Below are positions 14,051 through 45,459 of a stretch of 64,000 nucleotides of DNA, piece by piece (positions within the stretch are counted from its first letter, which is position 1; the number at the start of each line of letters is the position of its first letter). This stretch comes from Lama guanicoe. Its lineage: Eukaryota. The notes beneath the pieces were generated by a model. It saw only the letters and a program-made list of their open reading frames with translations. It was not told where the DNA came from and did no database searches. Both the position numbers and the translations under genes were made by a program. The stretch lies in assembly GCA_013239625.1 (NCBI GenBank), contig MU053594.1, forward strand, positions 962,536-1,026,535, in the 5' to 3' direction.

Positions 14051-14064
14051 GGGAAGAGCACCGG

Positions 14065-18235: not shown

Positions 18236-18287
18236 TGATTAAATCATTACACGACTGTCTGACTAAAAGGATAGGTCTATATCCAAA

Positions 18288-20179: not shown

Positions 20180-20270
20180 ATCAGAACACTCCTCATTCAA
20201 TAGCTGGGTGAGTTGTTTCACGTCTCTGAGCCTCAGTTTTCTCCCCTACGAACTGCCTATTTCACAGACT
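20180..20270 (+). mobile_element. MIR core fragment
   Basis: 'tctctgagcctcagttttctc'. Confidence 0.55.
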
Positions 20271-20912: not shown

Positions 20913-21045
20913 TTTTTTTTTTGTTGGGAGGGGGGAAGTAATTAGGTTTTTATTTGTTTATTTTTTAAATGGAGGGACTAGGGATTAAACCCAAGACCCC
21001 ATGCATGTTAAACACACACTCTGCCACTGAGCTATACCCTCCCCC
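20913..21045 (-). mobile_element. tRNA-Ala-derived camelid SINE (Vic-1 type)
   Basis: Reverse of 'gggggagggtatagctcagtggcagag...', with tail 'aagtaattaggttt'. TSD TGACCCTCACTG(G/T)CA at 20898-20912 and 21046-21060. Confidence 0.9.
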
Positions 21046-21889: not shown

Positions 21890-22530
21890 TCTCGGGAGGG
21901 CAGTTTGTAATCTGTATCACTATGTAACACATCATGTAATCTGTATCACTGTGTACCGCATCATGTAATCTGTATCGCCGTGTACCGCATCATGTAATCT
22001 GTGTCTCTGTGTACCACATCATGTAATCTGTATCTCTATGTAATACATAATGTAATATGTGTTAGTATGCCTTAAAAATATTTGTACCTTGACCCAGCTT
22101 TTCCGTTTGTAGGAATATGTACTGAGAATATAAGTGAGTGTAGAAATCTTCAAGGATGCTCATTGCAATGCTGTTGATGGGTGAAAAAAAAAAGAAAGAA
22201 AGAAACTAACCCTCAGTGATAGGAATTGGTTAAATAAATTAGTCAATTAAATATTCTGCAGGCATCTTCCAACATTAAAAAATACATTAGAAAATATACA
22301 TGTAGAAATGATGCTACAGTGAGCAAACAAGCTTGCACTGCAATACAAAAAACTGTAGTTTATAAAATATATGCATCTGCACAAAAAAAAAAAACCCTGA
22401 GGAAGAGACACCAAAATGTTAATATTACTTATTTTTAGGTGGTAGTTCAATGGGTAATTTTAATTTTCCTCTTTTGTCTGAATTTATAAATTTTCGATAA
22501 TAACCATGTATTTTTTTTTAATAATAAAAA
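21890..22530 (+). mobile_element. Old L1 (L1ME-like) 3' fragment
   Basis: 'ggagggcagtttg...tttgtaccttgacccagc...caaggatgctcattgcaatgctgtt...taggaattggttaaataaatt...ggaagagacaccaaaatgttaa'. Confidence 0.7.
21906..22060. repeat. 29-bp minisatellite, about 5.3 copies
   Basis: Unit TGTAATCTGTATCACTGTGTACCGCATCA starting at 21906, 21935, 21964, 21993 and 22022, with a partial copy at 22051. Confidence 0.95.
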
Positions 22531-22784
22531 ATGAAGTATTTGGGTAAAGTTAGAATTAAAAGAGAACTGAAAATAATCAAGCCTAAGCTTTCATTTTACA
22601 TTTAGTGACGCTCTAGGTTAGGAGGATGGATCAGGCAAAAAGAAACTCTACCACCAATAAGGGAAGATAACTTCTTAAATCCCTATTCACATTAATGTTA
22701 CCTCTAAATTAAATGTGAAATTAAATGAATTACAGACTTCTCAAAATATCTCTAACTTAACATGGAACTCCCTCTAGAGGAGTT

Positions 22785-23220
22785 CTTCAGCTTTCCTGGG
22801 TCACTGAGACCACTTGAGATATCTGATTAATGCCATCATGGCAACTCCCAGAAAATGCACGTGGAGCTCTAATAAACAGAAATTTTGCATGTTGGTTCAG
22901 GGACTCACAGAGACCCAAAAGCCAGTCCATGAATTCCATTCAGCAGCGTTCTACACTGTGACGTGAAACCACACGACACGGAATAGAAAACGACAGAATA
23001 AAGAAGAAAAGGAATAACATCAAATATATCCTGCATCTATAAAGAGTCAGTAACATTTTGTGAGATTTTTGGCTCACCAAATTATTTTAAACACGTGGAT
23101 AAATCTAAAGCATATTCAATGATATAATTTATTCTTGTGTGTGTGTTGGTGTATTCCGGACTGCGATATAAGACTTACCATCGCAGGGTAGAGTTCAACA
23201 GTAGGAAAGTGACCATCCTA
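22785..23220. mobile_element. Probable hAT-Charlie-type DNA transposon relics
   Basis: 'ttcagctttcctgggtcactgagaccacttgagatatctgat...aattttgcat...ggactcacagagaccc' and an adjacent Charlie-like segment. Family not resolved. Confidence 0.45.
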
Positions 23221-23580
23221 GAAGCCCATTACTCCAGGTTAAAACAAGAAAAAAAAAAACTTGCACTATAAGGGAAAACAGCATGAGGGTGATTGAACTA
23301 AGGACCTAACTACACCCTTTGGAGGAAATCAGAGGAAAGAGTGGAGTTTCTTAAACCTCCTATAAAAAACTATCTATTGCTGTTTGGAAAAAAACAGGAG
23401 TTAAAATTTTGGGTCAGGGCCTGAGCAAGCAACAGCTTTGGATTCTTTCTGATCTATGTTCCATAAGCATTTAAATGGTTTATTTTAAATTATGATTTAT
23501 TTACTACCATTAAACATGGACATTCATTCATGTGCTACTTTGATTTCTGTGAAGGTAAATCATATCCAGCCACAGGGAAA

Positions 23581-23666
23581 CTCATTTTCTCTCTCTCTCA
23601 TTCATTCTCTGTCTCTCTCTCTCTCATTCATTCTCTGTCTCCCTCATCCCCTCTTTTCTTTTTCCC
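23581..23666. repeat. (TC)-rich pyrimidine tract with internal duplication
   Basis: 'ctctctctctcattcattctctgtct' occurs twice. Confidence 0.85.
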
Positions 23667-24483
23667 AGAACAGAGCAGCGGCTAGAAGTGGAAAATTTCC
23701 ACCGAACTGATTGACTCTGAGACGTCCAGACCAGCCACAAGGAGACAAATGTCTATTTCAGATTGTCTCCAGTTCATGCCAAATGCCTGAACCCAATGGA
23801 TCTTCCATCAGAAGGGTGGGTTCATGTTCCATTAAGACAACTGATTCAGTCAAGTTTTCTCTCACATCTGTTTCAGCACAAGCCACTGAATAGCCCTCAG
23901 ACACTCCTTGTCACCAAGACAGGCACATAGCTCTTTAGTTTTATGGGAAGCGCTCCTAATGGTTTTGGTTCACGCTCAGGGGAGTGTGGAAGAGGAAGAA
24001 ACTGGTTCCAGGTCGGGGGCCCTCCGGGAGAACCCCTGCTATTTTTCTACACTCTTTCCAAGCTTTAACGCCCAGGCCTACACCATCTGTGGCGGGAAGG
24101 TCCCAGGGAATCAAAGCCGAGGCCAAGGTCACCTTCAGCACTTTCAGTGCTTCTCTTCCCTTCCCCGGGTGCTCTCCAAAGAGTATTTGCAGCAGGGGTC
24201 ATCGCTCTACATGAACACGTGGAAGTAGAAGTAGAATTTTAGGCATTAAATTATTGGAGTGGAGATGTAATTACTATTAATGCATTACAGGTGGAATGCG
24301 CTCTCTTCAGTATTTGAAGTCATGTTACATTGGCTACTATCTGGCTCTGACCCATGAATTTCAAAGGCATTTCCAAATAAAGGAAAAGAATTTTCAGGGA
24401 AGAAATTATCTAAGGTCAGTAAGAATCAGGCCAGAGATGAATCACAAATTAGGGTGAAGGCCAGGGAGCTAGTCATAAGATCC

Positions 24484-24660
24484 TTTTTTTTTTTTAATTG
24501 AGGCAAAACTCATATTAACACAAAATTACCCATTTTAAAGTGTACAGTTCAGTGGCATCTAACACAATACTCTGCCATCACCGCCTACATCAAGTTCCAA
24601 AACGTTAGCATCAGCCCCCAAAGAAAACCCTGCACCCATTTAGCAGTCACTCCCTGACCC
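24484..24660 (-). mobile_element. L1MB-like 3' end
   Basis: Poly-T followed by 'aattgaggcaaaactcatat...ccattttaaagtgtacagttcagtggcat...cacccatttagcagtcactccc'. Confidence 0.8.
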
Positions 24661-24960
24661 CAGGATCTTGAACTCAAAAGCAGATTTGACACTGAGAGGT
24701 CTGTTCACAAAAGGTCTAAGCTGAGCATAAATGTCAGGGCAGGAACTTTTCACACCTCCGCCATCACTATCCTCAGCTCACAGGGGAGGGTCCATAAACA
24801 TTGCTGAAGGAATGCTGAATGACTGGGAACCAAGCTGAGCAGCAAACGACTTGACTTGCTACCAAGTCAATGAACTATTAACCTCTCTCTGCCCACCCCC
24901 CAGACACTGAGCTAAGCCAGGCAATCGGTTCTAGAATCTAGAGATCTGGAGGGGGCTTAA

Positions 24961-24998
24961 CTCTTACCTGCATAGGTAAAGAGTAAAGAAGGGTCAGA
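24961..24998 (-). other. Candidate recursive splice site (branch point, polypyrimidine tract, CAG|GTAAGA)
   Basis: Minus strand reads TCTGAC CCTTCTTTACTCTTTACCTATG CAG|GTAAGAG. Branch A at 24994, AG at 24969-24968, GT at 24967-24966. Confidence 0.35.
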
Positions 24999-25019
24999 TT
25001 TGAAGATAAGAGGCTTAGC

Positions 25020-25230
25020 GAGCACTTCCTAAGTGACGGAAGTTTTATTCTATCCCATTTAATCTCCCACCGGGACACCTGAAGCTTAGAGGAACAATCT
25101 GTGTGAGGTCACTCGGCTAGAGAGAAGCAGAGCTGGAGCTGGGGCCTGAGCAGTACAGCACAAAGCACTTGCCTTCTAACATTAGACTGTGGCCATTTTA
25201 CAGATGAGAAAACTAAGGCTCGGAGCAAAA
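25020..25230 (-). mobile_element. MIR fragments
   Basis: 'ccattttacagatgagaaaactaaggctcggag' and an upstream MIR-like segment. Confidence 0.65.
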
Positions 25231-25837
25231 GCAGCAGGAACCCAGGGAATCAGAGATACTACAGGCTTCAGGATACTTCAACATCAGGATGGGTGAGAAA
25301 GCTGCAACCAGATGGGTGAGTTTACATTCAAGTCCAAAAGGGAGGGTCCCCACTCTTCAGCAACGCAAACAGAGGCAAGGTTCCATTTCTGGGGATACTG
25401 CCAAGTTTGTACAGATCGTATGGTGCACCCAAAGGTATTAGCAGAAGGCAAACCTAATCTATGAAATGTGCACAAAACCCACTTACATAGTAAGTAAAGT
25501 AAAAGTTTAAGGTCACTGTCTAACCATCTACATATCAACTGTCTTAAAAGCTTTCCATGTTTCTGTTAAAAAGAATATTCTGAGAGCAGATGTCAATCAT
25601 AGCATATGGTCTTTTTTCCCTCCTCAACTTTTTAGAGCTGTCGGGCCTGTCTCAGGGAAAGTAGAGGACAGAGTGGTCAGAGTGCCTGGTGGCTGAAGTC
25701 CCAGTGATAATCCTCTGAAGGAGACACTGCTCTTTGCCCACTTTCAGACATGGAACCCGAGGCCCAGAGAGGTGTCCCGCAGCCAGCTGGCACCTTCGGG
25801 GACAGCAGCCGTGGGGACTGGTATGTATGAGAATTAG

Positions 25838-26288
25838 TGTAACCTCGCAGGACCCCGTGGGGCCTTCCCGGGACAGACCCCTCCCCCATGCCCTCCGCTG
25901 TGGCTCCTCTCTGAAGTTACCCAGATAGTATCTTGTGCATATTTCCTGAATTTTTCCATGCTAAAACCCACCACCAAATGGAAGAAATTAACTACGTGAT
26001 AATCGTGAGCACATGGCCCCCAGACCTCTGGGTGTCTAAGGACTGACCACCATCAGCCAATTAGAGAACTGTGCACAAGCTGATCACACATCCTGGGGCA
26101 CCCCTCCTCACCTGGACTCTAAAAATGCTTTGCTGAAACCCTCTGGGAAGTTTGGGGTCTTTGGGGGCACGAGCCACCCCGACCTCCTTGCTCGGCCCTG
26201 CAGTAAACCTTCCTCTGCTCCAAACTCTGATGTTTCAGTTTCTTTGGCCTTGTGGTGTGTCGGGCACACAAACTTGTGTTTGGTAACA
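25838..26288 (+). mobile_element. ERV1-like solo LTR (lineage-specific)
   Basis: TGTAAC...GTAACA termini; imperfect 4-bp TSD TTAG/TTAC; CCAAT at 26057-26061, TATA-like TCTAAAAA at 26118-26125 and poly(A)-signal variant AGTAAA at 26202-26207, in LTR order. Confidence 0.8.
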
Positions 26289-26920
26289 TTACAAGAAAGT
26301 GAATGTGGAGGTGACTTCCGGGATGCCAGGAACACTCTCCCCCATCACAGAGCCAGTGCAACAGAGAAACAGTCCCGTGACCACACTTCCGCTGGAAATT
26401 TCACCCCCACATGGTGTGGCCTGGGACACGGAGGTTCTATTATGCTGCAATTCGCCCAGTAAGGCCTTACACATTATTCCTATTTGACATTTGCCTTTCT
26501 GTATCGCTTTATCTGGGGTTATAATCTTCAGCTCTTTGAAAAGATTTTTAAGTGTGACTTGACTTTATTTCATTCTTGTTTTAAGTGTGAATTGACTCTT
26601 CAGAGTGATTTTATTACACATAGGATCAGACTGTCCTGAAGTAAATAAACACTCAATAAATAAATAAGTAGACTCTCACAGGAAAATAGGCTTCACTTTG
26701 TTCATCTATTGTAATTCAGGAAAACCATGGCACAGTGCAACTGTGAGCTCCCGTACCACGAGCCGGGCAGGGACCATGCGTTCCTATAAAAGCACCAGGA
26801 GCATAAAGTCACAAATCTCAGGTGCTCGGGGCCGCCGTCTACATGGATCGCATGAAAGTCTAATAGATACAAAGCTTAAAAGATGAACAGCCAGTAACTT
26901 TCCACGTCTGTGAACTGCTC

Positions 26921-27118
26921 TCTATCTGTCCATCTGTCTGTCTATCTACTATCTAACCATCCATCTATCCATCTGTCTATCTATCCATTCATCTATCTTT
27001 CCATCTATCTATTCATCTGCCTATCTGTCTATCAATTTATCTGTCTATCTATCCATCTGTCTGTCTGCCTATCTATCTACCTACCTATCTATCTACCTAT
27101 CTATCCATTCATCTGTCC

Positions 27119-27181
<63 letters not shown>

Positions 27182-27315
27182 CATTCATCTGTCTATCTAT
27201 CCATCCACCTATCTATTCATCTATCTATCCATCTATCTATTCATCTGCCTGTCTATCTGTCTATCAGTTTATCTGTCTGTCTATCTATCCATCTGTCTGT
27301 CTGTCTGTCTGTCAT
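26921..27315. repeat. Compound (TCTA)n/(TCCA)n/(TCTG)n microsatellite
   Basis: Direct reading; pure TCTA core at about 27120-27180. Confidence 0.95.
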
Positions 27316-27549
27316 CTGCTCTGTTGCCAACATAAAACATTTAAGACTGTGAACGGAGAACTTCCCAGCCAGGGAGGTATCTTTGGCCCTCTTATGGAAA
27401 AGCGTCAACTCCTGTTAACTGATAGCTGTCAAAGCAAAGTTCCAACTGAAGGTGACTGAGAATTGTGTGTAAACATTAAGCAGAAATGAGAGGTTCTGTG
27501 TGCCTTGGACCAACGGGGCTGTGGTCATGCCAGCGTGGGCCAGGGAGGC

Positions 27550-27770
27550 AGCGCAGGATAATGGTTTGGAGTGTGGGCTCCAGCATCTGGCTGCCTGTGT
27601 TCAAAGCCCCGCGTCTTCTCTTCCCAGCTCTGGGCTCTAAGCAAGGTACTTAACTTCCCTGTTCTTCTCTTTATTCTGCTGTGAAACAAGGTGATTTTAA
27701 TATCAACCCCCTGGACTGGATTAGGTGAGTCACCCAGCACCTGGCATTCAGTAATGTGATTATTCTGTCT
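27550..27770 (+). mobile_element. MIR SINE
   Basis: 'ctgcctgtgttcaaagcccc...agcaaggtacttaacttccctg...cccagcacctggcattcagtaa'. Confidence 0.7.
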
Positions 27771-28870
27771 GCAGATCATTTTATATCTGGTTCTTCAGTA
27801 GCACTCAAATCAGTACAGGCTAATGAGCGCTCTCCTGATAAATAACCCAACTGCGCTGTCTTTTCCATGTTACTTTCCCCAAGCGCCATCAGAAGCGATG
27901 GGGTAGGTCTTTAGAAACAAACCACGATTCATCTTTTTTTCATAACTCACCTACAGCTTTGAAGCTCTCCCCTTCTCAGCGCAGAGCTTCAGATGACAGA
28001 GCTTCTAACACTCCCAAAGCCGATCAGCAGATAGCATAACACAGTTAAAAAGCCAGTGTGAAAAAAATAATAAAACTCTTTTATTCAAAGAAAAATTTCC
28101 TTGAGGTGAGCGCCTTCACTCACGGCGAAGAGAGAAGCATATTTTTATAACACGCTGGGCCTATTTTAGCAGACAGGATGAAATAAAATAAAAGAATTTA
28201 TCCAGCCTGCATGTATCATCAGGGGAGAAGAAGAAATATTATCGCTCTCATTTAAATTCATTTGCAATATATTTTTGTATCAAGAGGTATAAATAATGCA
28301 TGATGGCATTTCAGAGCCTCAGATTCATGCTCCAGTGTGTTCTATTACCTTACATTCTCTAGTCGCAATGTGCAGGGCTGCTTCAGAGGGAAGGATGGGG
28401 AGGGAACTGCCTCTCCCAGGGCTCCTCTATGTGTCTGAGTGCACATCCTTCCTCCCACCAGGATCACCTTCCCAGCAAGTGCACTGCGATGTCCTTGGGA
28501 AAGGGTCTCATGGCCACGCGATGATTCCAGTCACTGCCATTCCCCGAAATGGCCATCTTCTCTCTGCCCAGGGGAGCCAGTACCGCAGAGGAAGTCTCCC
28601 AGGGCTGCTGTGCCTACTGGGGGAGGAAACAGACTTCCTTGCCAGCTACCGTTTCCTAAGAAAATACTTATACAATAAGCAAACTGTGATCTTCCTCTCG
28701 TGGAAACACGTATGCCTTTATTTCATACCTATTTTAAGAATACGCTGACACCAGAAACGTTTTAGCTCAAAAATTTACCACCCTGCTTGTCCCTTGTAAT
28801 AACAATGGGAAAAAGCTCACAAACACATTTTGTGGCTAAGTTCTACAAATCACATTTGACAGCCTGTGTT

Positions 28871-28902
28871 TGTGCGCACGCATGCGCGCGTGTGCGTGTG
28901 TG
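28871..28902. repeat. 32-bp perfectly alternating purine/pyrimidine tract (Z-DNA-prone)
   Basis: TGTGCGCACGCATGCGCGCGTGTGCGTGTGTG. Confidence 0.85.
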
Positions 28903-30114
28903 GAGGAAGAATCAGCAAAGGAAAACACAGCACAGTGAAACAGCTAAACACAGATTGCTCTCTCGTCTTCCCCTAAAAGTGAAGGAAAGGTTGGTGGGTC
29001 CATCTTGGTGTGTGACCATGTCCTTAAGAAGTTATTGATCCAAAGATGTTCAGACAATAGTCTCTTACAGAAGAACATGAGAAAGAGCAGGCAGAAAAGA
29101 AGGAACCAGAGAACATATTCAATCCTTGCCTGAGATTCTGGTTTGGGGGAGAAAACTGATCAGACTCGGTCGATTACTAGGGGACCCAGCAAAGCCTTGT
29201 TTCATTTAAACAGACTTTATTGACCTTGGCTGAATACTGCCAAAGCTAAATAGCATGATGACACTATCGTCATATATCGTGAAAGGTATCATTATAGCAC
29301 AAAATAGTGATGCTCAATAAACCTGAAGTGAACTCTTAAAACAGGACAAATACTCGAAATCGTCTAGATCACATTCAACTCATACAACCATCTGCAGAGC
29401 ACCTGCTGGGCGTGGGCATGATGCCAGGCACTGTGGGGGTCTGGAAGCTGTGTTCAAGGTGGACCCTGCAGGGAGGAGAGGGAGAGGGGTCCTGAACACA
29501 AGGCAGAGAGCTGAAGGGCTCACAGTGACGTGCAGACTCTGAATGTTTGCCACCAGCTGGAGAGATCACAGAGGCATCTTTAAAAAGATGGTATTCCAAA
29601 TCCACCTTCAATTAAAAGTAAGATTTCAAGAGGCACGGATAGGGGAGGGGAGAGCAGGAGTTGGAGGAGAAAGTGTTCTCCACTGGCTGTGCACAAGCAC
29701 ATCGTGCCTCTGTTTAAAACCCTGTCACCCATGGGGTGGAGTAAAGCCGCCTGTTGATCTCTCCCCTCTCCCTTCTCCGGCCTCCTCCCTACTGTACCAC
29801 ATTTATCATCCCAGGAAGGAACGGTCTGCAACTCCCTGGGGTTTCTGTTCTGCCTCTCGCCCTCATGCTTTTGCACACATCGGTTCCTCTCCCCAGAATG
29901 CCTGTCTTCCCTCTCCTCCCCTCCCAGCTCCCCACAAGCCCTGGTCTGCTCCAGAGTCCTCCTGACCCTACAGCACTGAATTCACGCTCGGGTCCCTGGG
30001 CACAAGCATCCCCATCATCTGGGTAGAGTTAGCTCTGACCTCCTGATGCCCGCTGCACCTTGACTGTACTTTCTGGTTGACTGTACACCTTGACTATATC
30101 AAGAAGCCCTGGCT

Positions 30115-30213
30115 GGGGGCACAGCGGGTGGGTATAGCTCAGTGGCAGAGTGCACGCTTAGCATGCACGAGGTCCTGGGTTCAATCCCCAGTACTTACAT
30201 TAAAAAAAAAAAA
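30115..30213 (+). mobile_element. tRNA-Ala-derived camelid SINE, short tail-less variant
   Basis: 'gggtatagctcagtggcagagtgcacgcttagcatgcacgaggtcctgggttcaatccccagtac' followed by poly-A. TSD AAG(A/C)AGCCCTGGCT at 30101-30114 and 30214-30227. Confidence 0.9.
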
Positions 30214-30717
30214 AAGCAGCCCTGGCTTCTGCGGGGTATAAAAAAAAATGAATTTCTATTTTCCCATCATTACCTTCAGCTCCGCTCTGTCAGATCCCCC
30301 TTTCCCATTGCTTAGCTACATCTGCCACAAGCTCCAGAACTTTCCTGGCAGCCCAGAGATTAAAGTCAGTCCACTCCCATCTAAAAGGCCACTTTAAAGC
30401 TCCTCCCCTTCCCTCTTTCAGTGCATGACGGGATGAGGACGCTCTCCTAGACCAGCTCCTGGGTGGGGTGTTGGCAGAGGACAGGGAGGTGGGAGGTTTG
30501 CACTCTTCCTCCCTTTCTGTCTGAACCCTTCTGATGTTTGGGTGAGGGAAGGGGAGACCAAGACACACAAGAGTCTGGGAAGGTGGGAACCGGGCATCAC
30601 CAAGGGAACAGATAGGACAGCCATCGCTCACCAGGTCACGTGACCACAGGCGGAGATGCTCCAGGTTGACCCACCTCCTGAAGGGTTCAGAGTGATATTA
30701 TTACTGTTGTTTTAAAC

Positions 30718-30736
30718 GGGGGGGGGGGGGGGGGGG
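30718..30736 (+). repeat. G19 homopolymer
   Basis: Direct reading. Confidence 0.95.
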
Positions 30737-31409
30737 AACAAATCATAAAAAATATTTTTCAAGGACACAATAAAAGGGCTTAATAAGAGGAGACTTAAAG
30801 ATGTTTATACCTTCTCTTTACATTTCCCTGTTACACTCTAATGAAGCGGTTCACAACTGGTTTGTATAAAGTAGTCAGAACAAGTCTGAAGACAGCTTTC
30901 TCCATTACGTAACCAAATGGTCAATCTGTTGTACAGTAAGTCACTCTCCCAGCTTCACGGTATACAACAGCACACGCCCCCAACGTCACAACACAAAGAA
31001 ACATCTCCCTCCAGCATTCTTGATGTAAGAAGAGTTTTTAAAAAATGCTTTAACACAACCACGATAGCACACGTAAAGGTATGTAGGGGGTTATGATGAT
31101 CATATCCAGTTCGGGAATGAAAGAGTAAGACAGCGCTGGAATCCTGCACCTAGGTTTGTTTTTCAATTGTATATAAAATGTAAAACATGTTTTATAAAAT
31201 TTTTTCAGGGATTAGTCCATAGCTGACTGAAGCCTATCTTGCCATATGTTCTGCACCAATGACTACTGTCCTTATGGCTGCGAATAGTTTAAGACAAATT
31301 TATGGAAACCATGTCATGCTATTTCCTTGAACATTTAAATTAAAAACAAAAGCTTATATATTAATTTGTGTAATATTAGGAGAATCATAGTTCAAAAAGA
31401 AAGAAAATG

Positions 31410-31545
31410 TCTTACCTGTTGTAAAATAATAATAATACAAGTAGAAATGCAACAGCCAAACCATCCAGAAATGTTATTCCAGCCAGATGATGGGGGGTGA
31501 GGAGGGAGAGGAAGAGAGAGAAAAAAAAAAGTTGTGATCAGCAAG
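31410..31545 (-). other. Candidate recursive splice site or distant-branch-point 3' splice site abutting a 5' splice site (CAG|GTAAGA)
   Basis: Minus strand: TGCTGATC, then T10-CTCTCTCTTCCTCTCCCTCCTC, then no AG until TTATTATTTTACAACAG|GTAAGA. AG at 31417-31416, GT at 31415-31414. No minus-strand AG between 31565 and 31418. Confidence 0.5.
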
Positions 31546-31734
31546 AATATAAAATATTTCATTTTCTAAACAAACAAAAATTCATAATAAAATGAGCATC
31601 AACAATCATTCTATAAAAGATGAAATAAACTCTAGGACCACCATTTTGCTGTATTTGTTAGTTTCTCAATACAAATAGAATTATCCAATATAGAAACAAA
31701 AATTCCAAACAGAAATTAGTTTTATTTATATGAC

Positions 31735-31960
31735 AGAGCAATTTGTTTTGAACTACAGGCCACAAGCCTAACCCTGCCCACCACTTGTTTTTATAAATAA
31801 AGTTTTATTGGAACACAGCCACTCCCACTTGTTTATGTATTGTCTGTGACTACGTCTGCGATACAACGGCAGAACTGAGTAGTTGCTACAGAGTGCATAG
31901 GACCCTAAAACCGTAAATATTTACAATCTGACCCACTACAGAGCACGTTTGCCGACTCCT
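31735..31960 (+). mobile_element. MER58A (hAT-Charlie)
   Basis: 'ttgtttttataaataaagttttattggaacacagccac...gcagaactgagtagttgc...aaatatttacaatctgacc...gtttgccgactcct'. Confidence 0.85.
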
Positions 31961-32034
31961 ATTTAATAAGAGTAATGATAAAACTATTCCTCTACTTTTT
32001 CCTTCTCAGACAGTTACATCCCAATCAGCCCTGA

Positions 32035-32357
32035 CATGTGCTGTCCAACATGGTAGCCACTAGCCATGTGTGACTATCACACCCTTGAAATACGGCCAAT
32101 CAAAACTGAGATGTGTAAAATACACACCAGAGCTCAAAGACTTAGTAACGGCAACAACTGAAAGTTAAAATACTATTAATAATTTTTAAAATACTGATTA
32201 CATGTTGAAATGATAATACTTTTAGTATACTGAATTAAATAAAATGTTATTAAAATTACATTAAAATCTCAGGCATTTCGCTTTTTTTTAATGTGGCTAC
32301 TAGAAACATTTTAAATACATATGAAGCTCACATTTTATTCCTATTGACAGCAGTGGC
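32035..32357 (+). mobile_element. MER33 (hAT-Charlie)
   Basis: 'gctgtccaacatggtagccactagccatgtg...aaaatacacaccaga...tttaatgtggctactagaaa...ctattgacagcagtg'. Confidence 0.85.
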
Positions 32358-34639
32358 CTAGAGTCGAGGACAAATACAAATAATGTAAAACAAACAATGT
32401 TCTGAGAACTAGGTCTTTCCAGGATCTGATCCTAAAATATCACAATGCAACTGACAATGGTGTGTAGGCTATACTCCTAGGACCGAGAAGCAATTGGTCT
32501 GCTTTTTGGTTTGCTTAGTAACTGAATTGCACAACTTGTCTGAAGAATCTGGTTCTTGAGATGGCTTAAGAAATGAGAGGTAATGTTCAGCCACTGGCTC
32601 CATACAGACCCAGCATAAGTTGTTGGGATCAAAGTGTCTGGAAGTAAAAACTTTCAGTGAAGGTCAGTTACATCCTTCAACTTCCCCTCTTAGGTAGATA
32701 AGAACAATGCAAGCTCTCACCTCCCCCAAGTTCGCTGCAGCACATAAGTAAGTAAGGGGAGGTCAGAGGGAAGAGTAGAAAAAAAATCAAGTTCATCTTA
32801 ACGCATATGTGCCAAATACAAAAAAACAAATTTGAACAATACAACCTGTCTTACATAATTCATTGTTATTGCAACTCCACACGTATCCTGCTCAACATTT
32901 ACCTCACTTAATATCCAAAGGTCATTAGATACAAATTTGTTTTTTCATCAGTGAGTTTTCCCTTTGGTCAGGCATATTATTTCCATGTTAGTCTACGTAA
33001 TACAATTAGACAAACTGATGAACATTTACACGGATGATGACTAGACACCCATCACATCCACAGTATTTGTGAAATATAACCACTTCCCAGAAGGTAAACA
33101 ACCATTCCTCCCAAGGCCACACACAGCCCATCACATGAGGCGTGGCTGTGATGGAAACAGGCTGATTTTCATCACTCGTGAAAGCAGTCTCATGACTCAA
33201 GCACCGAGTAACCGCCACGGGGCAGGCATGGCAAGAAAAGGCGGGAAGCAAACATTTACCCCCCTCAGCATCTCCATGAGGTTTTATAAATTAAGCTATT
33301 TCCAATGCAATGGAGCAATGGAGGCCAAACCCCAAAGTTTTCAGGGAATGAACTGAAGTCCAAGGTTCCCTGTGCGCTGGTTAGAGCTCCCCCAGGGCTT
33401 TCTGTTACGTTTCAACTCTCCAGTCACCAAACTGCTACAGACCCCAAGCCAGGTCGGTCCACTCTGCTGGATGGTGAGGGATACAGGGGTGGACATAAGC
33501 CAGTTCTTCTTTGCTCTAAAGATGCTTAGAATCAAAAGGAAAATCAGATGAGCACAGAAAGGAACAGGATGCAAGGCGGAGCAAGGTAGATCGGGATAAG
33601 AGAAGCAACGCGCTAGGGGCCTTCACAGACACGACCCTCCCTTCCTTTTCAGCCAGAAGAAATTCAGCGAATTCCGTGGAAAGGCTGACTCGAGATGAAG
33701 ACTGATGAAAAGGTTCTGCGGAGAGAGAAATTACCTAAAAAAGGCAAGGAGGCAGAAACACAGTGGGCACATTGGAAGAATGGTAAGGAGCACACCGTGG
33801 CTGGAACATGGATTTCGGGATCAGTGACAGAGAATTCGAGCAGCATGTTGGAACTGGGTCATGGAGAGCGTGTCCATGCTGGGCAAAGAGACCGGACTTC
33901 ATCTGGCAGGACGGGGAGAATCACGTGAGACTCGGAATCGGGAGAAAGATGAGATGGTGAAAGACAGGAGGACACGGAGCCCTGGGCTGGGCACCCCGAG
34001 GCCCCCCATCGCGGGGGAGCACTCCCACCGCAGGGGTGACGCTGGCTCTCTGGGACCAGGTTTTGTTATTTTCTCTTTCTCGAAGGTGGGCTGGAGCAGA
34101 CGATCTCTAGATCCCCACCTGCCCCAGGAATAAGTCTGCGTCCAGGAAGAGAGCTGTGTGTTGGGGAAAGACAGATACGGCATCAGTGCAGCCCCTAGGG
34201 GAGCCGAGGATCAGGAAGGAGGTGACAGGGACACACGGACATGACAGCCCCCTTCCTCGTGTGTGTCTGAAACAGAACGAGAAGGCAGCATAGAAATACT
34301 TGAAGCACTGAGAAAAGAAAATTCTATTGGGCTTATTTACTTAATATATTGGCAAAACAGAAAGGAAGGGGTCACAGAAGATTGCAAGGGTTGGAGTCTG
34401 GGTCTCACAAGACCTGCACCCTCAGCGATTCGACTGACACCAGCTGACACTTATTAATAAACTGTCGATGGGCAGACACTGTGCAGGGCAAGGGTCTCGT
34501 TGATGAGTAAGACAGGGTCCCTGTGCCGAGGCGTTTCATTCCGGCACAGGTGTGAGGCCGCTGCTGGTTTGCATTTCTGTTTCTGCTCTGGTATGACTGT
34601 TAGAGGGGAGAACAGCGGGGCACGACTGCCATCTCAGCC

Positions 34640-34880
34640 TTGGACTAGACCCCTGACAGCCGAGGGCAGAGGGCAAAGCACTCTGAATTCACAAACCCAG
34701 CTCTCTTGCCTTGTTCCCTGCATCACTTTGAGCAACTCCTGGAACCTTTCTGAGCTTCAATTGCTTCATCTGTCAAAGGCGGTTGATAACACTGTCCTTC
34801 GTGAATTATGAAGAGGATTAGATAAGCTTACATAGGTGGGAGCACTTTGTGAATCTCAAAATGCTTTACGATTGTTACCT
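34640..34880 (+). mobile_element. MIR SINE
   Basis: 'aacctttctgagcttcaattgcttcatctgtcaaagg...gaggattagataagcttacat'. Confidence 0.7.
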
Positions 34881-34899
34881 GATGTGGTGGTTCATTCTC

Positions 34900-36000
34900 A
34901 GGTGCTGGTGTGACATCCAGGTAGCCAATAAAAATACAGATATATAGATGGGGAGAGGGGTCTAGCTAAAGATAAGTCTGTATTAAGACGGTGGTTACAT
35001 TACTAACTAAAGATAAGTTTGGGTTAAGATTGCAGTTAATTAAGATTGTAGTTAAAGTCACTAGGACAGATGGAAACGCTAAGAGAAGAAGTACAGTGAA
35101 AAAAGCTGAGAGATAAACTTCAAGGGTCACCTGCCTTGATGGACTGGAGGAAGAAAAGAGTCAAGGGAAAACAGGAAAGTGTCCTAAATGGGAGCATCAG
35201 AAAAAACACTGGGCTGGGAAACCCAGGCTCTCCCACCTATTGATTATTTGGCTTTGGGCAAATTATCTAAGCCGATCGTCTTCAGAAGTACCACTGGGGC
35301 ATCAGAGATGAAGAGAAAAACACCAGAATCTTAGCCTATCTCTCTAGTGTCAATTTCCTCCAAAGATGTGAGGCTGGGAGAAGCGAGGGGGCATTCAGCA
35401 AGGTAGGATGAGAACAAGAAAAGTGAGGACTGTGCCGAAATGCAGAGAGCCCTAAGGAAAGAGAGGCTTTCAGAAGGAAAAGGTGGTCAGAAGTATCAAA
35501 GAACGTGGCAGACAAGGAGGACCAACCCTGAAACAGCTGCAGGACTGAGGGATGGAGGAGTCATCCGTGGCTTTGAAGAGAGATGTCTTCAATGTAGAGG
35601 GGACAGAGGTGGATGGCAAAGGATGAACGGAGGATGGGAGGTGAGAGCCGAGGGAACATGGGAAGGAGGAGAAGATGCAGAAGGGGACAACTGGTTCGGA
35701 CTATGGCATGGGGGAGATGCAGCGTTTTCAGGGAGCAGAGGGATAGAGCCAGAAAAGCCGGAGAGAAAGGAAAGCTGATGGGTCAGTTACTGAGGAGTGG
35801 GGCGGAGGGCCCGTGTGCAGAGTTTATCCTTATAAAGGAGAAGGGGCAGCTCTTCGGCTGAGGCTGTCAGGAGCAGAAGGGTTAAGAAAAGAGAAATTGG
35901 AAGCAGAAAAATAAAAATCAGGAAACCGTTCGTATCAGACAGATTAAAACTTCCAAACTGGAGGTGAGGTCATTTGCTGAGAGTCCAGGGCTGGAGCTCA
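34900..36000 (-). mobile_element. Degraded L2 remnant (purine-rich on +), probably with a small MIR insert
   Basis: A/G-rich sequence typical of reverse L2 ORF2, such as 'gttaaagtcactaggacagatgga...ggactggaggaaga...tgtgccgaaatgcagagag'. Boundaries uncertain. Confidence 0.5.
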
Positions 36001-37506
36001 GGGATTTGGAACGGTCTGGAAGAGCCCCGTGGGGACTCAGCTAGGGTGTCCAAGAGACAGGACCGCAAGCACTCCCTGAGAGCTGGCTTCAAACCAGAGA
36101 CCTGGCCCTGGGTCGCCCTGAGGACGGGCTGACAAGGGAGGCTCTCAGAGAGACCCGGATGTTTCAGGCAATGCAGTCACTTTCTTTAGGCTGGTTGGTC
36201 CCTGCTCAGTGCTGCATTTGGGCCCCGCTAGGTAAGAGCTTAGTCCAGGGAGAGAGGGAGGTGGGCTTCATTATTTTTCCCCTTGTAAAGCGGGAAAATA
36301 AAACTAAACAGATGATGCTGATCATAAAGTAACAGTAGGGAACTACCTATTTAGATCCAACATACTTAATAAATGCAAATACAGGGGACAAAAGCAATGT
36401 TAAATTTAGTCTAAATAATACACCAGCATGCCTCACACCCAGCCCTGCTGGTGATGCGGGTACACATACATGAATTTACCAAATAATTGTACTTTCTTCC
36501 TAGAACACCAAGACCTTTCAAAAACGATTTTAACAGCATGTTCTTAAAAGAGAACAATGCATTTCCCTACTAGGTTGAACATAATTTAGTATCTTCTTGG
36601 TGTCTCGGGGTCATCATTGTAAAATCTGTCACTAGGCTGCACTATACAACACGACAGTGCCCCCAGGAGTGCTGAGGTGTGCAGAGCCACTTGTCCACTA
36701 ATAAAGATCCTGTCCCTCGATGTCATTATAGTTCGTGACTCTACTGTTTCTTTCTCAATTGTCACGTCCCAGGGTGAGATCTGCCTCATGATGTGTTGTC
36801 CGCATAAACTTGAAAGAACTCAAGGTTCTGGAGAAAAAATATATAATCAAATTTATTAAACCAGGAACTGCTGTTTTCATTGAATTATCATGAAATGGGC
36901 TCTAGCTGAAAGGTCCAGGGTGTCTCCGTATGTTTCCTGCAAATCGAGGCAGTGGGTTTTGTGACAACTGTTTTCTTCAGTGCTTCGATATTTCACTGTG
37001 TCTCATTTTTCGTCCCTACAAATTCAAAGAATGAAGTGTCAGAAGTCTGACCCCCAGGTAACTGTAGTATTATTATACTGCCTTCTCCACTAGAAAATGC
37101 TGAAGCATCTTGATTCCAGGTTATTAACACAGTCTTCTTAACATAGACCTGAGAGTATTTTATTATAATAACCGAATATCTCCCTTGTGTTCTTAGATGT
37201 CTAAAGAGAATAGAAACTATTTTTCAGCCCTAAATTTCTCATCATAAATGGTACCACGATAGTCTAAATCAGTGGGGTTCTGGGTTTGGCTAGTCACGCT
37301 GACGCTGTCCGATAATGAATCCCTTATTTAATATTTATAAACCACAAGCTATTTGTGACTCCCTAAAGCTGCTGACAACTAAGGAAAGGGAATATTAAAA
37401 CAGTATTTCATCTTCATCTTCTGTCGCATCCTACACCATGACATGTAATAGATTGGAACTGTCACCCAGTCAAACCTCTTCCAGGTCTACAGAAACCAGG
37501 ACCATT

Positions 37507-37552
37507 AAAAAAAAAAAAAGAAGAAGAAGAGCAAGAAGAAGAAGAAAAGATA
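37507..37552. repeat. Poly-A plus (GAA)n purine tract
   Basis: Direct reading. Confidence 0.9.
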
Positions 37553-38567
37553 AAACCACAAACCTCGTAAGTACCTCCTCTGCACAAATAAATAATATTA
37601 TTCTGGGAATGTGGCTTGTTATTTACACAATGATATAAATTTTAAAAAAATAGCTTCCTTTCTTAATAAAGAGTCCTGGTAAGAACCAAGACTCCCCTCA
37701 ACTCATCCATTAATGTTTCTTTATCTTCAACACTCTAGGCTGCAACAAGGCCTTTGGGGTTTTCTGTTAAATCTAGGTCCCAAATTCACAGCCCCTCAAG
37801 AGTGAGTGAAAGTGAAAGAAAAGTCTACTCGGTCTGTAGGACAAACCACTGCCAGACAGGGGTTCTCTGCCCAAATGCCAACGTGCCGCCCACCTGCGGA
37901 TAACGGGACAGACAGGCAGCAAAAGAAGCCGACCCGAGGACACGCGGGTGAGTTCAGCAGCAGCCTGAGTACCACGACTGGATTTGAGGTTAATTTTCCT
38001 TTTCTGTCAATAGCACAGAATACAAGACAGCTCATCAATCATATAAATTAGCGTAGCCCTCAGGCCCAAGCCTCAAAGAAAGTAGGGCAAATCTAAAAGG
38101 AATCAGGATAAACTGCAAGTCAGAGCTTGAACAAAAGCAGATTATAACTCTCAGCAAGTTTTTCGCTCGTACGGCTCTTCGGTGACATCAAACAGAACAT
38201 GTCCAAAACAACAGCAACCCAGGGCCAACGCACGGGGACACCGCTGGTCACGAGACTGCAACTATCCCTGCAACAGGATCCTTGCAACAGAATTAACCTC
38301 AATTTCTTGGAGTCATTTCTTCAGTAACAACCAGGAGTGCTTGTTGCAATGCTGTGAACAGAGGTTATTCCACAAATGCTTATTGACTCAGGATAAGTGG
38401 GAGAACGAAAGTCCTTTTTACAATGGTGAAGCCCAACATGGATAAAGAAAGAATCCACGGCGTGTTTACTAACTACATTTTAGGGACAAGTTGAACGTAA
38501 GCCCATTTCTCCATCTCCACCAATCAGACTGGAGAATTATGACGTGAGATGGGGAGAAGTTAAAAAA

Positions 38568-38813
38568 TGTATGTGTATAAATATAACATATATATAAAAT
38601 ATATACACACATAATGGAGAGCATACATAATATAACCATTACAACACAGTATGTGTAATAATAGATCATATATATACTCTCCATTATATGTATATATATT
38701 ATCATTATGTATTATATATGCATTCCATTACCTGTGTATATATTACAATTGTATTATATATTATATATGCCCTCTATTACATGTGTGTATATACACATAT
38801 ATAATGGAGAGCA
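38568..38813. repeat. (TA)/(CA)-rich low-complexity region with internal direct and inverted motifs
   Basis: ATAATGGAGAG at 38611 and 38801; its reverse complement at 38677-38687. Confidence 0.85.
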
Positions 38814-40039
38814 GAGAACTGCAAATATCACATGTACAGCATTACTTTAACATCCTGACGTCTGCATCTGGGTTAAGTGTGTGTGGCATCTTACAGAGTT
38901 AACGTTTTATGAATTAAAAAAGAATTTTAATGGGTCAGTGTACACACACCACGGGCAGCCTCTCAGAGCGCACCCTTCACCACGATGTGTAAGGGAGCTG
39001 GGAAAACATAGCCCTCTATAAAGACAGCCCCTGGAGGAGAAGGGACCCGCGGGGGTACAGCTGCTTGTCTTTAGCTCACATGAGCCCCTTCGTCCTCCTG
39101 AGAATAACCACCATGTTTTTTGCAAATACAAGATAATATGCTTCCCCTTCTTCTAAGGAGAAAGTTAAACTAAGCTGGTTTCAAATGTAGGACTGAGAGC
39201 AAAAGGAAGAAACCTCTGTATCTTCAACCCAATTCTTCAGAACCTCTTCGTCCTGTCTCCACACTTGTACATCCTGAAGCCGGCAGCATCCCAATGCCAC
39301 CCTCAGGTGTTACCTTTTCTGCTGTATTTTCAAAACAACTACTATTTCTACTCCTACCATTTCAGGGTATAGAGGAGGGTAGGAATCTGCTCACCTCTGC
39401 CTCCCAAAGCAAGCCTGATAATATGACCGATCACACACCAAACAGCCTGTTTCCAATGCACAGTTCATCTCGGAGCTGCAATTACCGGTCCTAATTCTGA
39501 AGCCAGAAGCAGTGATGTGTCTGAATTCCAGGGAGATGATTGAATGGAAATCTTCACATCTGATCACCTCTCACATACAAATTACCGTGTGTGCCAATCT
39601 GGCAATTACCTCAGAAGTAATAGTAAAAGCCATGCAATCAAATTCGTTATTATGGTTGCCTTCAATTATGGCAGGCAGGAACCTATGTGCAGAAAATTTA
39701 CTGAGGGGGGGAAAATGAGCCTCTGTATCTATTTTAATTTTAAATCAAGTCATTTCATTTGGAAAACTCTTTTAATTTTGGAAAAGACTCTGTTGAAATA
39801 CCCAACTAAGTAAAAGAAAATAATCAGCTAATTCTCCTTGGCACACCAGGCAACTCTCACTGCACAGAAGAAAAAGCCTCAACCCCCCCTCTTTTCTTCC
39901 ACGATTTTCTTCCAATACAGACAGGGCTGTAAGTCCATAAGCCTTCTTCAAGGGACAAAAAGAAAGATGGCATAAAGAATATAAGAATGGCACAGAAATA
40001 TGACCATGCCCTCCTGGATGGCGTATGACAGAGAAAATG

Positions 40040-40420
40040 CCACATGTTCACCAACCTCTACTCCTTCTCTGCCTGGGCACCAAAGAAATCCATTATTTCC
40101 CAGCCTCCCCTGCAGCTAGGTGGGGCCACTGGAATGTGGATGAAAATGAGGCAGACCACATCTAGGACCTCCTTGTCCCTAAAACCTCCCTCCTGGTCCT
40201 CTACACCCTCCCTCTGTCCTGTAGGTCAGCCGACAGGATGCAGCGGATTCTGGGAAGGACTAGAGGACAGAGGACCCTGAATCCCTGGATGACTGCAGCG
40301 AGCAGAGCCTGCCCACCCCCACATCCTGTTGAGCTGCCTAAGTCCCTGTACTCTCCCTGTGTGTATTGGGGGGAGGGGCGGGGGGGCGTTATTTCGGCAG
40401 TGGGTTCAGCCCAAGTAAGC
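40040..40420 (+). mobile_element. Old MLT1 (J/K/L-like) LTR fragment
   Basis: 'atttcccagcctcccctgcagctaggtggggccac...ggaatgtggatgaaaatgagg...gaccctgaatccctggatgactgc'. Confidence 0.65.
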
Positions 40421-40526
40421 AAGTGCAAAACCACAGAATCAGTTCTACCATGGATTTCTTGCATGCAGTCAGGCAATTCGCTCAGTTTAAGCTTCAATGT
40501 TTAATTTATTTAAAAAAAGGATAACA

Positions 40527-41165
40527 GAGTGGATTCTTACTATTCGTGGAGCACAAATTCACCAATTCGCTTCCCGGATAGGCTTTACCTACAGATGTAC
40601 CCCCAAAATCCATGCTGGCGGCCCGCCCCGCGGTCAGGCCAGGACATGCGCAGAGCGTCCTGGGAAACACGCTCCCAGCAGCGGGGGAACAAGACCGCGC
40701 CCGCCTTCCCGTTTCTGCTCCCCTCCTGTAAACAAGGGTCCTTTTCACGGTCTATTTAGTGCTACATTTTTCTTCGAATTTTTGTTCTTTTTGTTGGTGA
40801 TGTTGCTGTTGAAAGCAGCCCCCAAGGTACCGCTGAGTGCTGTCTGGTGTTCCTAAGCATCCGAAGGCCCTCATGGGCTTGACAGAGAAAATCCGTGTTA
40901 CATAAGCTTCGTGCAGCCATGAGTTACTCACGCTGTTGGCTGTGACTTCAGTGGTAATGAAGCAACAGTGTATATTAAATAACGCGCCTTTAAACAGAAA
41001 CACACAAGATAAGGTTATGTACTGATCAGCAGGCAAAAGCCTTGTGACCAGAAGCTGGAAGGAACCTAACCCTGTGTTTCCTCTTAGAAGCCAGAGTCAG
41101 GGTTTGCAAATTCAGGGCTCCTGGGGACTTTACAGAACCCGACCATCGCACATAAGGAGAACTGT
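40527..41165 (+). mobile_element. MER82 (TcMar-Tigger), near full length, inserted in a MIR
   Basis: 'ctgtaaacaagggtccttttcacggtctatttagtgc...gtgttcctaagc...ctttaaacagaaacacac...ggaacctaaccctgtgtttcc'. MIR-like sequence flanks both sides (about 40470-40525 and 41165-41240). Confidence 0.85.
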
Positions 41166-44100
41166 GAGGATTATACAAGATAATGTATGCTAAGGTGTTT
41201 CATACCTTAAAGGGGTATAAAAACGTTGGCTGGTACTTCTTTTAAAATTGCAGCTGTACATCGGGCCAGTGAGATGACTTCTCTTACCCCCCATCCTTCC
41301 TCAAATCCCTAATGGGGCAAGGATTAGCTCTCCTTGCTTGGTAACTGTACTGTTCATAATAAAGCAAAGTACTACATTCAAATTAGCTTCTTTTAATATG
41401 TGGTTTTTTACATTGCTTCCAGAAATCTCTAATCGCATTTTTTTTCATTTGTCTTGCTTTATTTACCATTATTATGGTTGACTTTTTTCAAGCTCTTTAA
41501 ATCACATCTGGTACGCTAGAGACCCCTTTTTCCCAGTTCACCTCTCAGGAGCCCTGCACCCTCTTGTTCTGATCTCACTTGGCTTCTCTGCAACTCTGCT
41601 GTTATCTTGAGACTTCCCCTCACTGCTCTTCGGAGATAGATAGCTTTTTTTTGTGAATTCCTTATCTTTTCTTCTTGGTTTTCTCCCTTATTTTGCAGAA
41701 GAGCATCCCCCTACATAACTTCCAAACAACACCTGAGGTTATTACTTCTCAACCAGTCTTGGGATTATGGTCGCCTCCAATGTTGCCACCCCAACTATAT
41801 CATCACCTCAATTATTACTGCACAGATTTGATTCTATGTGCCCGAAAAACCCTGGCTTTTGTGATTTACATTAGTCACAGAAAAGATTATGTTCACAGTT
41901 TCTATGTAAAAAGGGCAGTGTTAGCTGGGTCAATTTTCAGCTCTGCTCAGGATACAGACTACAAGGATTAACAGATCACCTCCTAACATTGAAGAAGTAA
42001 ATGCATTTGCAGGTTGAATCTAAGATGTACCACTTCCTGAACTCCAGTGATATTTTTAGATCGTTTAACTAAAAGAACAGGTATCACATGTGGCTGAGAA
42101 CAAAAGGAAAAATAAAAGTGGATGTACAGTAAATAATCTGAGCAGTTGTGATGCTATTTTGTTTTATTTTATACTGAGATTTATACAGAAAAATCAAAAT
42201 GGCCAGTTGATACGATTGCCCAAATAACTCAGAAAGGAAAAAGTACCCTTATACTGCATAAAGGTTTTGATACTCAGCTGCTTAAAATGTGCATATACAC
42301 TAGTTTGATTTATTAGATAAACTTATAACACTATCGTGCCAAGCAACCGAGAAATGTAAACATGATTTGACAAAGAAATTCAAATTATATAGATACGTTT
42401 TCCCTCCAGAGATCACTTTCCAGGAATCACTTTAAGGATCTGGCTTGGTAAGAATCGAATCTACATCTCCAGGTAACTTAGAAATAAACAGTGCATCCTT
42501 CCACCACAAGAGAACGCTTTTTACAAAATTGTGATTCTAGTCCTCTGATTCAGTACTGCAAGCGGTTTCCTATTCTATTCAATATGAACCTAAAAACCCA
42601 GGTAGTCAGTTTCTATTAAGTTACATTAGCAGCACCAAGACCAGGAATGTAGAAATTCTGATTTAATTTACTTTAAGTTGAAATAAAATCTTATTAAAGA
42701 AACTCAAGTCATTCATCAAAAAGTTAGCTCATATGATTCAGGTCTTCAGTTATTTGGAGGCATCTGGTGTAATGACTTCCTAGATTAGACAGTTCGGGAT
42801 AAGACAGTTCTTACACATTCAGGTGAAAATTTACCACAGTCATTATTAAATGCTAAAAGAAGTTGTTTGAGATCAACTTTCATGTCAATGACTTATCTAC
42901 ACCAACTATTTACATGCAGCAGGAAGATCATGAGAACTAAAATCCAGATTGTCTTTAAAAGGTCGAGATGAAGTAAAAAATTAACTGAACATAGAGCAGC
43001 AGCTTTCAGACCCATGATGGAACCAACTCACTACACGGGAACAAAGCTTCACTTGCAGGGCACCACTGTTGTGTGATACTGACATCCACAGGCCAGGTAC
43101 CACCATTTAAAATTCCTACCACACCGCCTCTGTTCAGTTACTTTCAGTCATTTCCACCTACATGTTGCCTCAACATGTTTTAGGTACTTTTAACACCTCG
43201 AATTTCTTTTCTTCACTCGGAAAAATAGACACACATTTTGAATATTTTTTTTTTGAAGTAACAGTGGAAGAGGTTGTCAAATCTCAAAATTTATTTGTCC
43301 AGGAAATTAAATTTTGTTCTATTGAATTGTTCCTCTGTTCACACAGATCTCAAGAAGACCCCAGGTCCTCGGATGTAGGAGAAGGCAGTCACAGAATATA
43401 CTTCATCTTTGTGCTCCCCCGTCCACACACGGAATCATCCTTCCCCCATGGGTACTAACTACACGTGCCTAACTGAATTAAAGCAAGCTCAGGAAGTCCT
43501 TCCTATTAGAACAAAACTAGGCAGGAGGGAGCCAGTGCATCAGAACCATCATGCAGATGAAAAATGGCAGAACAATGCAGTCCAAAATATAAATGAACAA
43601 AAATAAGTCTTCTGCTACAAATGTCAGACGACACATAGCTTCTTGCTCCTGAATCGCTGACAATCTAATCAAAGTATATTCTTTTGATATCTTCAGTGAT
43701 AGCTTGGATTAATAGCTCAGAGGGGAGTTTAATGTCTGAAAATAGTCAAAGGCATTCAGAGCTAAGTCCTGTGAATGGGTGTCCTCGGGGGTGCTGTCAG
43801 TGACCCCTGAAGACTGGAGGAGGGTCCCTCCTGCAACTGACCCCTTCAGGCTTCCGACTCTGGGACCCACCCCACCTCAACTGAAAGTGCAGGTGTGATC
43901 CGAGACCAGACGTTATCCTGTGTGCCTGCCGCTAGTCACATGGCTTGGTGCGCGCTGACACAAGAAATTCTAGTCAACAAGGATCTGCTCAAGCACTGTC
44001 CCGGCAGAAAAACAGAGAATGGACCAAATCCCTCTCCTCCGGCATCTCACATAACCTCTCCAGAACAGCGCAGTTTCTACACGGTAAATCAAGCCATGTT

Positions 44101-45451: not shown

Positions 45452-45459
45452 CTCATTGC

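Follow-up and report, generated by a model that had tools for sequence, protein, structure and literature searches.

A probable Lama guanicoe orthologue of the published NCAM1 intron 1 recursive splice site, with candidate branch-point signals displaced far upstream

The window analysed was a stretch of 64,000 nt of Lama guanicoe contig MU053594.1 (positions 962,536 to 1,026,535) that was intronic over its whole length (1..64000, minus strand) and formed part of intron 1 of NCAM1. No convincing coding ORF was seen in these 64 kb. The exons of a predicted bat isoform of the NCAM1 protein could be placed one after another on the contig's minus strand, between 1,072,389 and 777,216, and a minus-strand ORF in a CpG island (...MLQTKDLIWTLFFLGTA) matched neural cell adhesion molecule 1 proteins with an E-value of about 5e-21. 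Exon 1 (MLQTKDLIWTLFFLGTA) ended at contig 1,072,233 in phase 1 with the last bases ...ACTGCAG and the 75-nt exon 2 (VSLQVDIVPSQGEISVGESKFFLCQ) occupied contig 842,364-842,290; intron 1 therefore spans 229,868 nt of the minus strand, from contig 1,072,232 to 842,365. A Pfam I-set search of the genome gave no hit on the NCAM1 contig among the 150 matches listed. The donor that follows exon 2 appeared to be GC instead of GT (CAAG|GCAAGT, contig 842,288-842,290, minus strand), which would make NCAM1 intron 2 a GC-AG intron in this assembly. A short minus-strand ORF (MKRQHKQFCANQGRSQPR, contig 1,125,988-1,126,041) was also observed 54 kb upstream of exon 1, with 17 of its 18 residues matching the N-terminus of the predicted bat NCAM1 isoform; it may represent an alternative first exon or result from faulty annotation.

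Base composition agreed with this gene structure. A CpG island of 2.8 kb lay over NCAM1 exon 1 (contig 1,070,000-1,072,800), and the plus-strand GC skew, analysed for the window plus a 100-kb flank on either side, was negative in 29 of the 34 6-kb bins downstream of the island (862 to 1,066 kb) and positive in six of the nine bins past it. Together, the skews and the island are the signature of a minus-strand transcription unit starting at the island. The flip in sign across the island was also compatible with divergent transcription to its right. Three matches to the Rfam tRNA model within the intron, at 57576-57647 (minus strand, 51.8 bits), 30128-30199 (plus strand, 47.9 bits), and 20971-21041 (minus strand, 33 bits), were most likely tRNA-derived SINE heads and not tRNA genes.

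The feature under study was an AG|GTAAGA motif on the minus strand for which the original prediction had proposed a recursive splice site, i.e. a ratchet point in a very long minus-strand intron. NCAM1, which was among the genes that the prediction had cited as examples of recursive splicing, proved to be the host gene, with its exons on the minus strand, an intron of 229,868 nt, and a human and mouse site at a matching distance. The AG (31416..31417, contig 993,951) was positioned on the sense strand 78,282 nt from the exon 1 donor and 151,586 nt from exon 2; it was neither intergenic nor within a plus-strand gene and lay deep in the first intron. Its setting was that of recursive splice (RS) sites, namely the sense strand of an intron of more than 50 kb, usually the first, of a long neuronal gene. 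The first intron segment, of 78,282 nt, would end at this AG, and the GTAAGA immediately after it (31410..31415) would join the CAG at the end of exon 1 to read CAG|GTAAGA. The site thereby combined a 3' splice site AG with a GT that regenerates a strong 5' splice site with the upstream exon.

The letters of the minus strand, ...TTCTTGCTGATCACAAC-T10-CTCTCTCTTCCTCTCCCTCCTCACCCCCC...TTTTACAACAG|GTAAGA, were re-read and found to be exactly as originally described. An AG at 31566..31567 (tttgtttgtttAG) was followed by the next one only at 31417/31416, leaving the predicted 148-nt AG-exclusion zone (31418..31565) within an AG-to-AG gap of 150 nt. The predicted distant branch-point motif, CTGAT (31537..31541, A at 31538), was likewise present, its A preceding the acceptor's G by 122 nt, and lay ahead of a long pyrimidine tract composed of T10 and then CT-rich sequence (31492..31530, 39 nt with a single A at 31498). 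Only four yUnAy candidates occurred within the zone, comprising CTGAT at -122, the alternative TTTAT at -134 (A at 31550), a nearer CTCAC at -82, and TTTAC at -6 as the only such motif close to the AG. The best 30-nt pyrimidine window (30/30) was situated at -113..-84, and the last 20 nt before the AG, which included an (ATT)4 run, held 13 pyrimidines and not the strong proximal tract of a typical RS site. With a zone of at least 100 nt, a branch consensus and adjacent tract at its 5' end, and no good motif near the AG, the layout had the features of the AG-exclusion-zone class of exons. The displaced tract carried CUCUCU and UCUU motifs, and its richness in CUCUCU hints at a possible regulation by PTB-type proteins in this neuronal gene. 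The flagged stretch was single-copy in the 2.05-Gb assembly and no tandem repeat was found in it; the AG-free zone was partly of low complexity, owing to the pyrimidine run and (ATT)4.

Models of recursive splicing in vertebrates call for exon definition through an RS-exon that carries a 5' splice site downstream of the recursive site. At the flagged site, the regenerated donor CAG|GTAAGA scored 7.06 with a simple donor matrix and reached the 99.87th percentile of the 3707 GT on the strand, in keeping with the near-consensus 5' splice site that had been predicted. Downstream, the best of the 17 GT within 400 nt was TAG|GTGCAG (GT at 31149) in the 81.5th percentile, and TTG|GTGCAG (GT at 31256) was in the 64.2nd (31149..31257, minus strand). 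The caveat in the original prediction that only weak donors follow was upheld by these percentiles and agrees with the mouse site, for which the supplementary figures of PMC8797253 give a Down 5'ss score of only 0.28 and list 0 down-junction reads. No downstream RS-exon with a 5' splice site of its own was found at the flagged site and the exon-definition model is therefore left without its RS-exon here. An in-frame TAA (31354..31356, minus strand) formed the 21st codon counted from the junction codon, with exon 1 in phase 1, and would end the reading frame were the sequence after the site retained in the mRNA.

The combination of motifs was rare in the window. The 150-nt gap was the longest among those between the 4761 AGs of the minus strand, where eight gaps of at least 100 nt occurred; both strands together had 18 among about 9,300 AGs, where a Markov model predicts about 1.2 per strand. 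AGGTAAG was found four times on the minus strand and three times on the plus strand, and 17 times in 264 kb of the contig's minus strand (about one per 15.5 kb). The longest AG-free gap in the window was a 373-nt pyrimidine-rich, low-complexity tract on the plus strand (26893-27266, with translations like SIYLSIYL), indicating that long AG-free gaps can come from simple repeats alone. Calculated from the counts in the window itself, a gap of at least 100 nt should coincide with AGGTAAG about 0.014 times per window, and when the strand was simulated 300 times with a first-order Markov model, no gap of at least 100 nt ended in AG|GTAAG; both figures are post hoc. They argue against the possibility that the flagged motif arose by chance, with the true orthologue of the known NCAM1 site being another nearby AGGT or having been lost in this lineage. 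Other points favour such a coincidence, as orthologous sites can differ in position by several kb from one species to another, the 20 nt upstream agree poorly with mouse, and a second CAG|GTAAGA lies 6.4 kb away.

Recursive splice sites have been described in NCAM1 of both human and mouse. According to the available part of a review, Sibley et al. (2015) reported recursive sites of high conservation in ANK3, CADM1, OPCML, and NCAM1 (PMC8758631). According to the supplementary tables of Zhang et al. (2018; PMC6110456), human NCAM1 intron 1 comprises 240,714 nt (chr11:112,832,386-113,073,100) and its RS site is located at hg19 chr11:112,911,647, 79,261 nt from the 5' splice site, with a 3'ss score of 6.23 and an AGGT PhastCons value of 0.9995. 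The same tables report RS junction reads from forebrain progenitors (33 total and 16 unique at 60 min, 25 and 9 at 120 min) and a saw-tooth fold change of 0.33 (p = 3e-4), and the site at 79,261 nt is the sole conserved AGGT that they list between 63,289 and 111,919 nt. A mouse study lists two Ncam1 RS sites in its S3-S5 Figs, at mm10 chr9:49,719,365 and chr9:49,642,258 (PMC8797253). The first, about 79.3 kb from the end of exon 1 and with the motif AGGTAAGG, has 83 up-junction and 0 down-junction reads and a 3'ss score of 7.31, while the second, about 156.4 kb from the end of exon 1, has 135 up-junction and 0 down-junction reads, a 3'ss score of 3.15, a Down 5'ss score of -1.44, and matches the RT-PCR primers of S5. 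In the last column of S1 in that study, the first site carries a 'Yes' and the second dashes, read as previously known versus new with some uncertainty over the columns. Among the 20 mouse sites listed there, the three with the poorest proximal tracts include both those of Ncam1 (60-65% pyrimidines versus 75-100% in 17 of the 18 others), and the 3'ss scores of 3.15 and 7.31 rank second and third lowest, with Robo2 and Hs6st2 also low-ranked (PMC8797253).

Judged from its position and core motif, the flagged motif is very probably the orthologue of this published intron 1 site. Gene, intron, and strand sense are the same in guanaco and human, and the distance from exon 1, at 78.3 kb (78,282 nt), is nearly that of the human site (79.26 kb, 79,261 nt) and of the mouse site (79.3 kb). 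Both the human and the flagged site also have AG|GT, a strong regenerated donor, and an only moderate proximal 3' splice site (6.23 in human); they differ in that use has been shown in human cells and the site described here is known from its sequence and compared by position. The core TTACAACAGGTAAG was identical to mouse TTAAAACAGGTAAG at 13 of 14 positions, with TTAAAACAG|GTAAGG in the first mouse site and TTACAACAG|GTAAGA here. The 20 nt upstream of the core differed more, with nine of 20 positions shared in an ungapped comparison, for which the mouse sequence extended over 28 nt at each site. The runner-up among the AGGTAAG sites of the region reached eight of 20 and sequence match alone therefore does not single out the flagged site; the (ATT)4 run might be an insertion behind the poor upstream match. 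An exact 25-mer around the site had 0 matches in metagenome contigs.

A site 121,748 nt from exon 1 corresponds to the human putative site at 128,583 nt. Another, which lies 167,339 nt from exon 1 and 62,529 nt from exon 2, pairs with the human putative site at 176,566 nt, whose distance from exon 2 is 64,148 nt. A chance origin of the flagged motif is countered by the collinearity of all three sites, by a distance within 1 kb of that in human and mouse, and by the lack of any conserved human AGGT listed near the position of the rival CAG|GTAAGA in the tables of PMC6110456; overall it was considered improbable. The recursive site is thus very probably one already known from human and mouse NCAM1, and the original reading of the motif is supported.

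Two further motifs in the intron deserve mention. The site at 121,748 nt (contig 950,485, minus strand, outside the window) was a textbook recursive-type AG|GTAAGT (TTTTTTCCTCCCCATTTTGCAG|GTAAGT) with a CAG|GTGAGG 65 nt upstream, and was collinear with the human putative sites at 128,531 and 128,583 nt (PhastCons 0.90 and 1.0; PMC6110456). In the supplementary tables of that study with NCAM1, these two human positions figure only among the putative sites and not among the candidate or saw-tooth sites. The other CAG|GTAAGA (24962-24969, minus strand), downstream of the flagged site, had 16/20 pyrimidines in its proximal tract, more than the flagged site, with an AG gap of 46 nt, and was single-copy in the genome. 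It is probably not a conserved site, since the human list has no conserved AGGT at that distance.

A different reading of the AG-free stretch is that of a 150-nt cassette or poison exon (31565-31416) with tttgtttgtttAG| as its acceptor and CAG|GTAAGA serving only as its donor. Its length is divisible by three, it can be read through in one frame (KMKYF...LQQ), and splice-site-like sequence is present on both flanks; against this, the frame that continues NCAM1 phase 1 contains a stop (frame 2, ...IIWLE*) and 148 nt without an AG is unlikely for an exon. The translation had no protein relatives, with none of eight candidates at E<=1 and no candidate in a search of close relatives, which is weak evidence against an exon. 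The human and mouse junction reads tabulated in PMC6110456 and PMC8797253 join exon 1 to the base after the corresponding AG, implying that the AG is used as an acceptor. The second NCAM1 recursive site also had the same AG-free layout with an upstream AG that was not a usable acceptor, and a cassette exon was regarded as highly improbable.

This second recursive site was located outside the window at contig 904,894 (minus strand, TCTTCCCTGTCAAAACCAAAAG|GTAAGGGACTGCC), 167,339 nt from exon 1, and is recognisable as the counterpart (...AAACCAAAAG|GTAAGGGACTGCC) of the second mouse Ncam1 site (...CAACCAAAAG|GTAAGGAACTGCC). The two shared 13 of 20 positions in the upstream 20-mer and an identical AGGTAAGG, and were followed by GTAAGGGACTGCC here versus the mouse primer GTAAGGAACTGCC. 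Its layout consisted of a 109-nt AG-to-AG gap, a CTAAC with its A at -112 (contig 905,006), a best pyrimidine window of 27/30 at -104..-75, and then AAAAG|GTAAGG. No usable acceptor was found at its upstream AG, and a usable downstream donor was found at neither NCAM1 recursive site. The mouse Ncam1 sites are alike in their weak proximal pyrimidine tracts and weak downstream donors, with 0 down-junction reads. Long AG-free gaps ahead of AGGT were uncommon in the 208 kb of intron 1 examined, where only three of 833 sense-strand AGGT had an upstream gap of at least 100 nt and 15 gaps of at least 109 nt were present among 15,291 sense-strand AGs; two of the three long-gap AGGT coincided in position with the two mouse RS sites. 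RNA folding of the branch-to-donor stretch revealed no excess stability at either site (z of 0.14 and -0.57) and hence no hint of structure that shortens the spacer.

From this arrangement, the balance tips slightly toward a first step that would use a branch point about 122-134 nt upstream of the AG, at CTGAT or TTTAT. The distant branch point of the original prediction accordingly stands in part: the in silico evidence for it was extended by the same layout at the second NCAM1 site, and CTCAC at -82 is a nearer candidate. The competing explanation is an RS site with an ordinary or moderately distant branch point, at CTCAC or at a closer non-consensus A, in which the AG-free stretch would be a by-product of the pyrimidine run and the (ATT)4 microsatellite. 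The partly low-complexity zone fits such an origin, as does the excess of 18 AG-free gaps of at least 100 nt in the window over the Markov expectation of about 1.2 per strand, and a distance of 20-50 nt is the rule for the branch points mapped at human RS sites (19 of 23 in Zhang et al., 2018, according to the part of PMC6110456 available). That study, however, was restricted to branch points less than 100 nt from a site, and distant ones could consequently not have appeared there. In addition, the sole near yUnAy motif, TTTAC at -6, is too close to the AG, the proximal 13/20 pyrimidines contrast with the 30/30 tract at -113..-84, and the second NCAM1 site shares the layout independently. A conventional branch point is retained as a possible but less favored explanation.

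Published lariat data gave no entry for the gene, as NCAM1 was absent from the four supplementary files of PMC10156609 and from the presumed lariat table of PMC6110456, and it was not in the supplements of PMC6224609; PMC13105047, in the part available, deals with CG-rich features and not with branch points. Hs6st2, the third mouse site with a weak tract, was also considered. Its 28-mer had no match in the genome at up to three mismatches, and its 22-mer at up to two mismatches had two matches versus one for a control pattern, with AG gaps of 36 and 12 nt. Neither 22-mer match could be tied to HS6ST2 and the extension of the layout to this gene was dropped.

Comparable signals are known from other systems. 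Exons with distant branch points and long AG-exclusion zones include alpha-tropomyosin exon 3, GABBR1 exon 23, and PTB exon 11 (Gooding et al., 2006; PMC1431707). As far as described in the available part of that work, these exons resemble the flagged site in a zone of at least 100 nt, a branch motif and long tract at its 5' end, and no good motif near the AG. They differ in being real, mostly alternative exons, whereas the flagged site is of zero length, with a predicted branch point and a donor directly after the acceptor. The Drosophila ratchet points (Hatton et al., 1998, Burnette et al., 2005, and Duff et al., 2015, via the available parts of PMC8758631 and PMC10638238) share AG|GTAAG in a very long intron, no obvious retained exon, and a somewhat more distant branch point (about A-29), for which the accessible part of PMC10638238 mentions no vertebrate case. 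In contrast, the fly tract is placed directly at the AG, whereas that of the flagged site is displaced by about 85-115 nt. The displaced-signal architecture common to both NCAM1 sites is possibly new, no description of it having been found in the available portions of the literature on recursive splicing and AG exclusion zones.

A two-step removal of intron 1 can be proposed on this basis, with transcription running from right to left through the window. In step one, the exon 1 donor CAG|GTACAT (contig 1,072,232) would be joined to the AG at 31417/31416 and a lariat of 78,282 nt would leave; use of the acceptor at this step has been shown in human and mouse and would hold here by analogy. Recognition would begin at the distal branch point and its 39-nt pyrimidine tract and proceed by scanning through the AG-free spacer to the first AG. 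In step two, the CAG joined to GTAAGA would act as a near-perfect donor to the second recursive site 89,057 nt further on or to exon 2 at 151,586 nt. With these recursive steps, the intron of 229,868 nt would leave in two or three pieces with nothing kept in the mRNA.

Since the site has been published for human and mouse NCAM1, its detection in this genome mainly confirms that sequence-only reading can find such sites. At both NCAM1 sites, a branch motif close to consensus and an extended pyrimidine tract, set 75-135 nt upstream, are followed by a spacer free of AG, and no usable donor lies downstream. Tentatively, they might represent a distinct, self-defining kind of vertebrate recursive site with branch point and tract 75-135 nt upstream, in which the distal module with U2AF and U2 would stand an exon length away from the recursive donor with U1, so that each could define the other across the AG-free spacer. 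Such self-definition, if true, would account for the weak proximal 3' splice sites without a usable downstream donor and for the 0 down-junction reads at both mouse Ncam1 sites. It would also mean that no downstream RS-exon donor is needed, giving a true zero-length exon in a vertebrate, and that pipelines scoring the last 20 nt or keeping branch points within 100 nt undercount such sites. The NCAM1 sites could in this way reveal another route to the recognition of zero-length exons.
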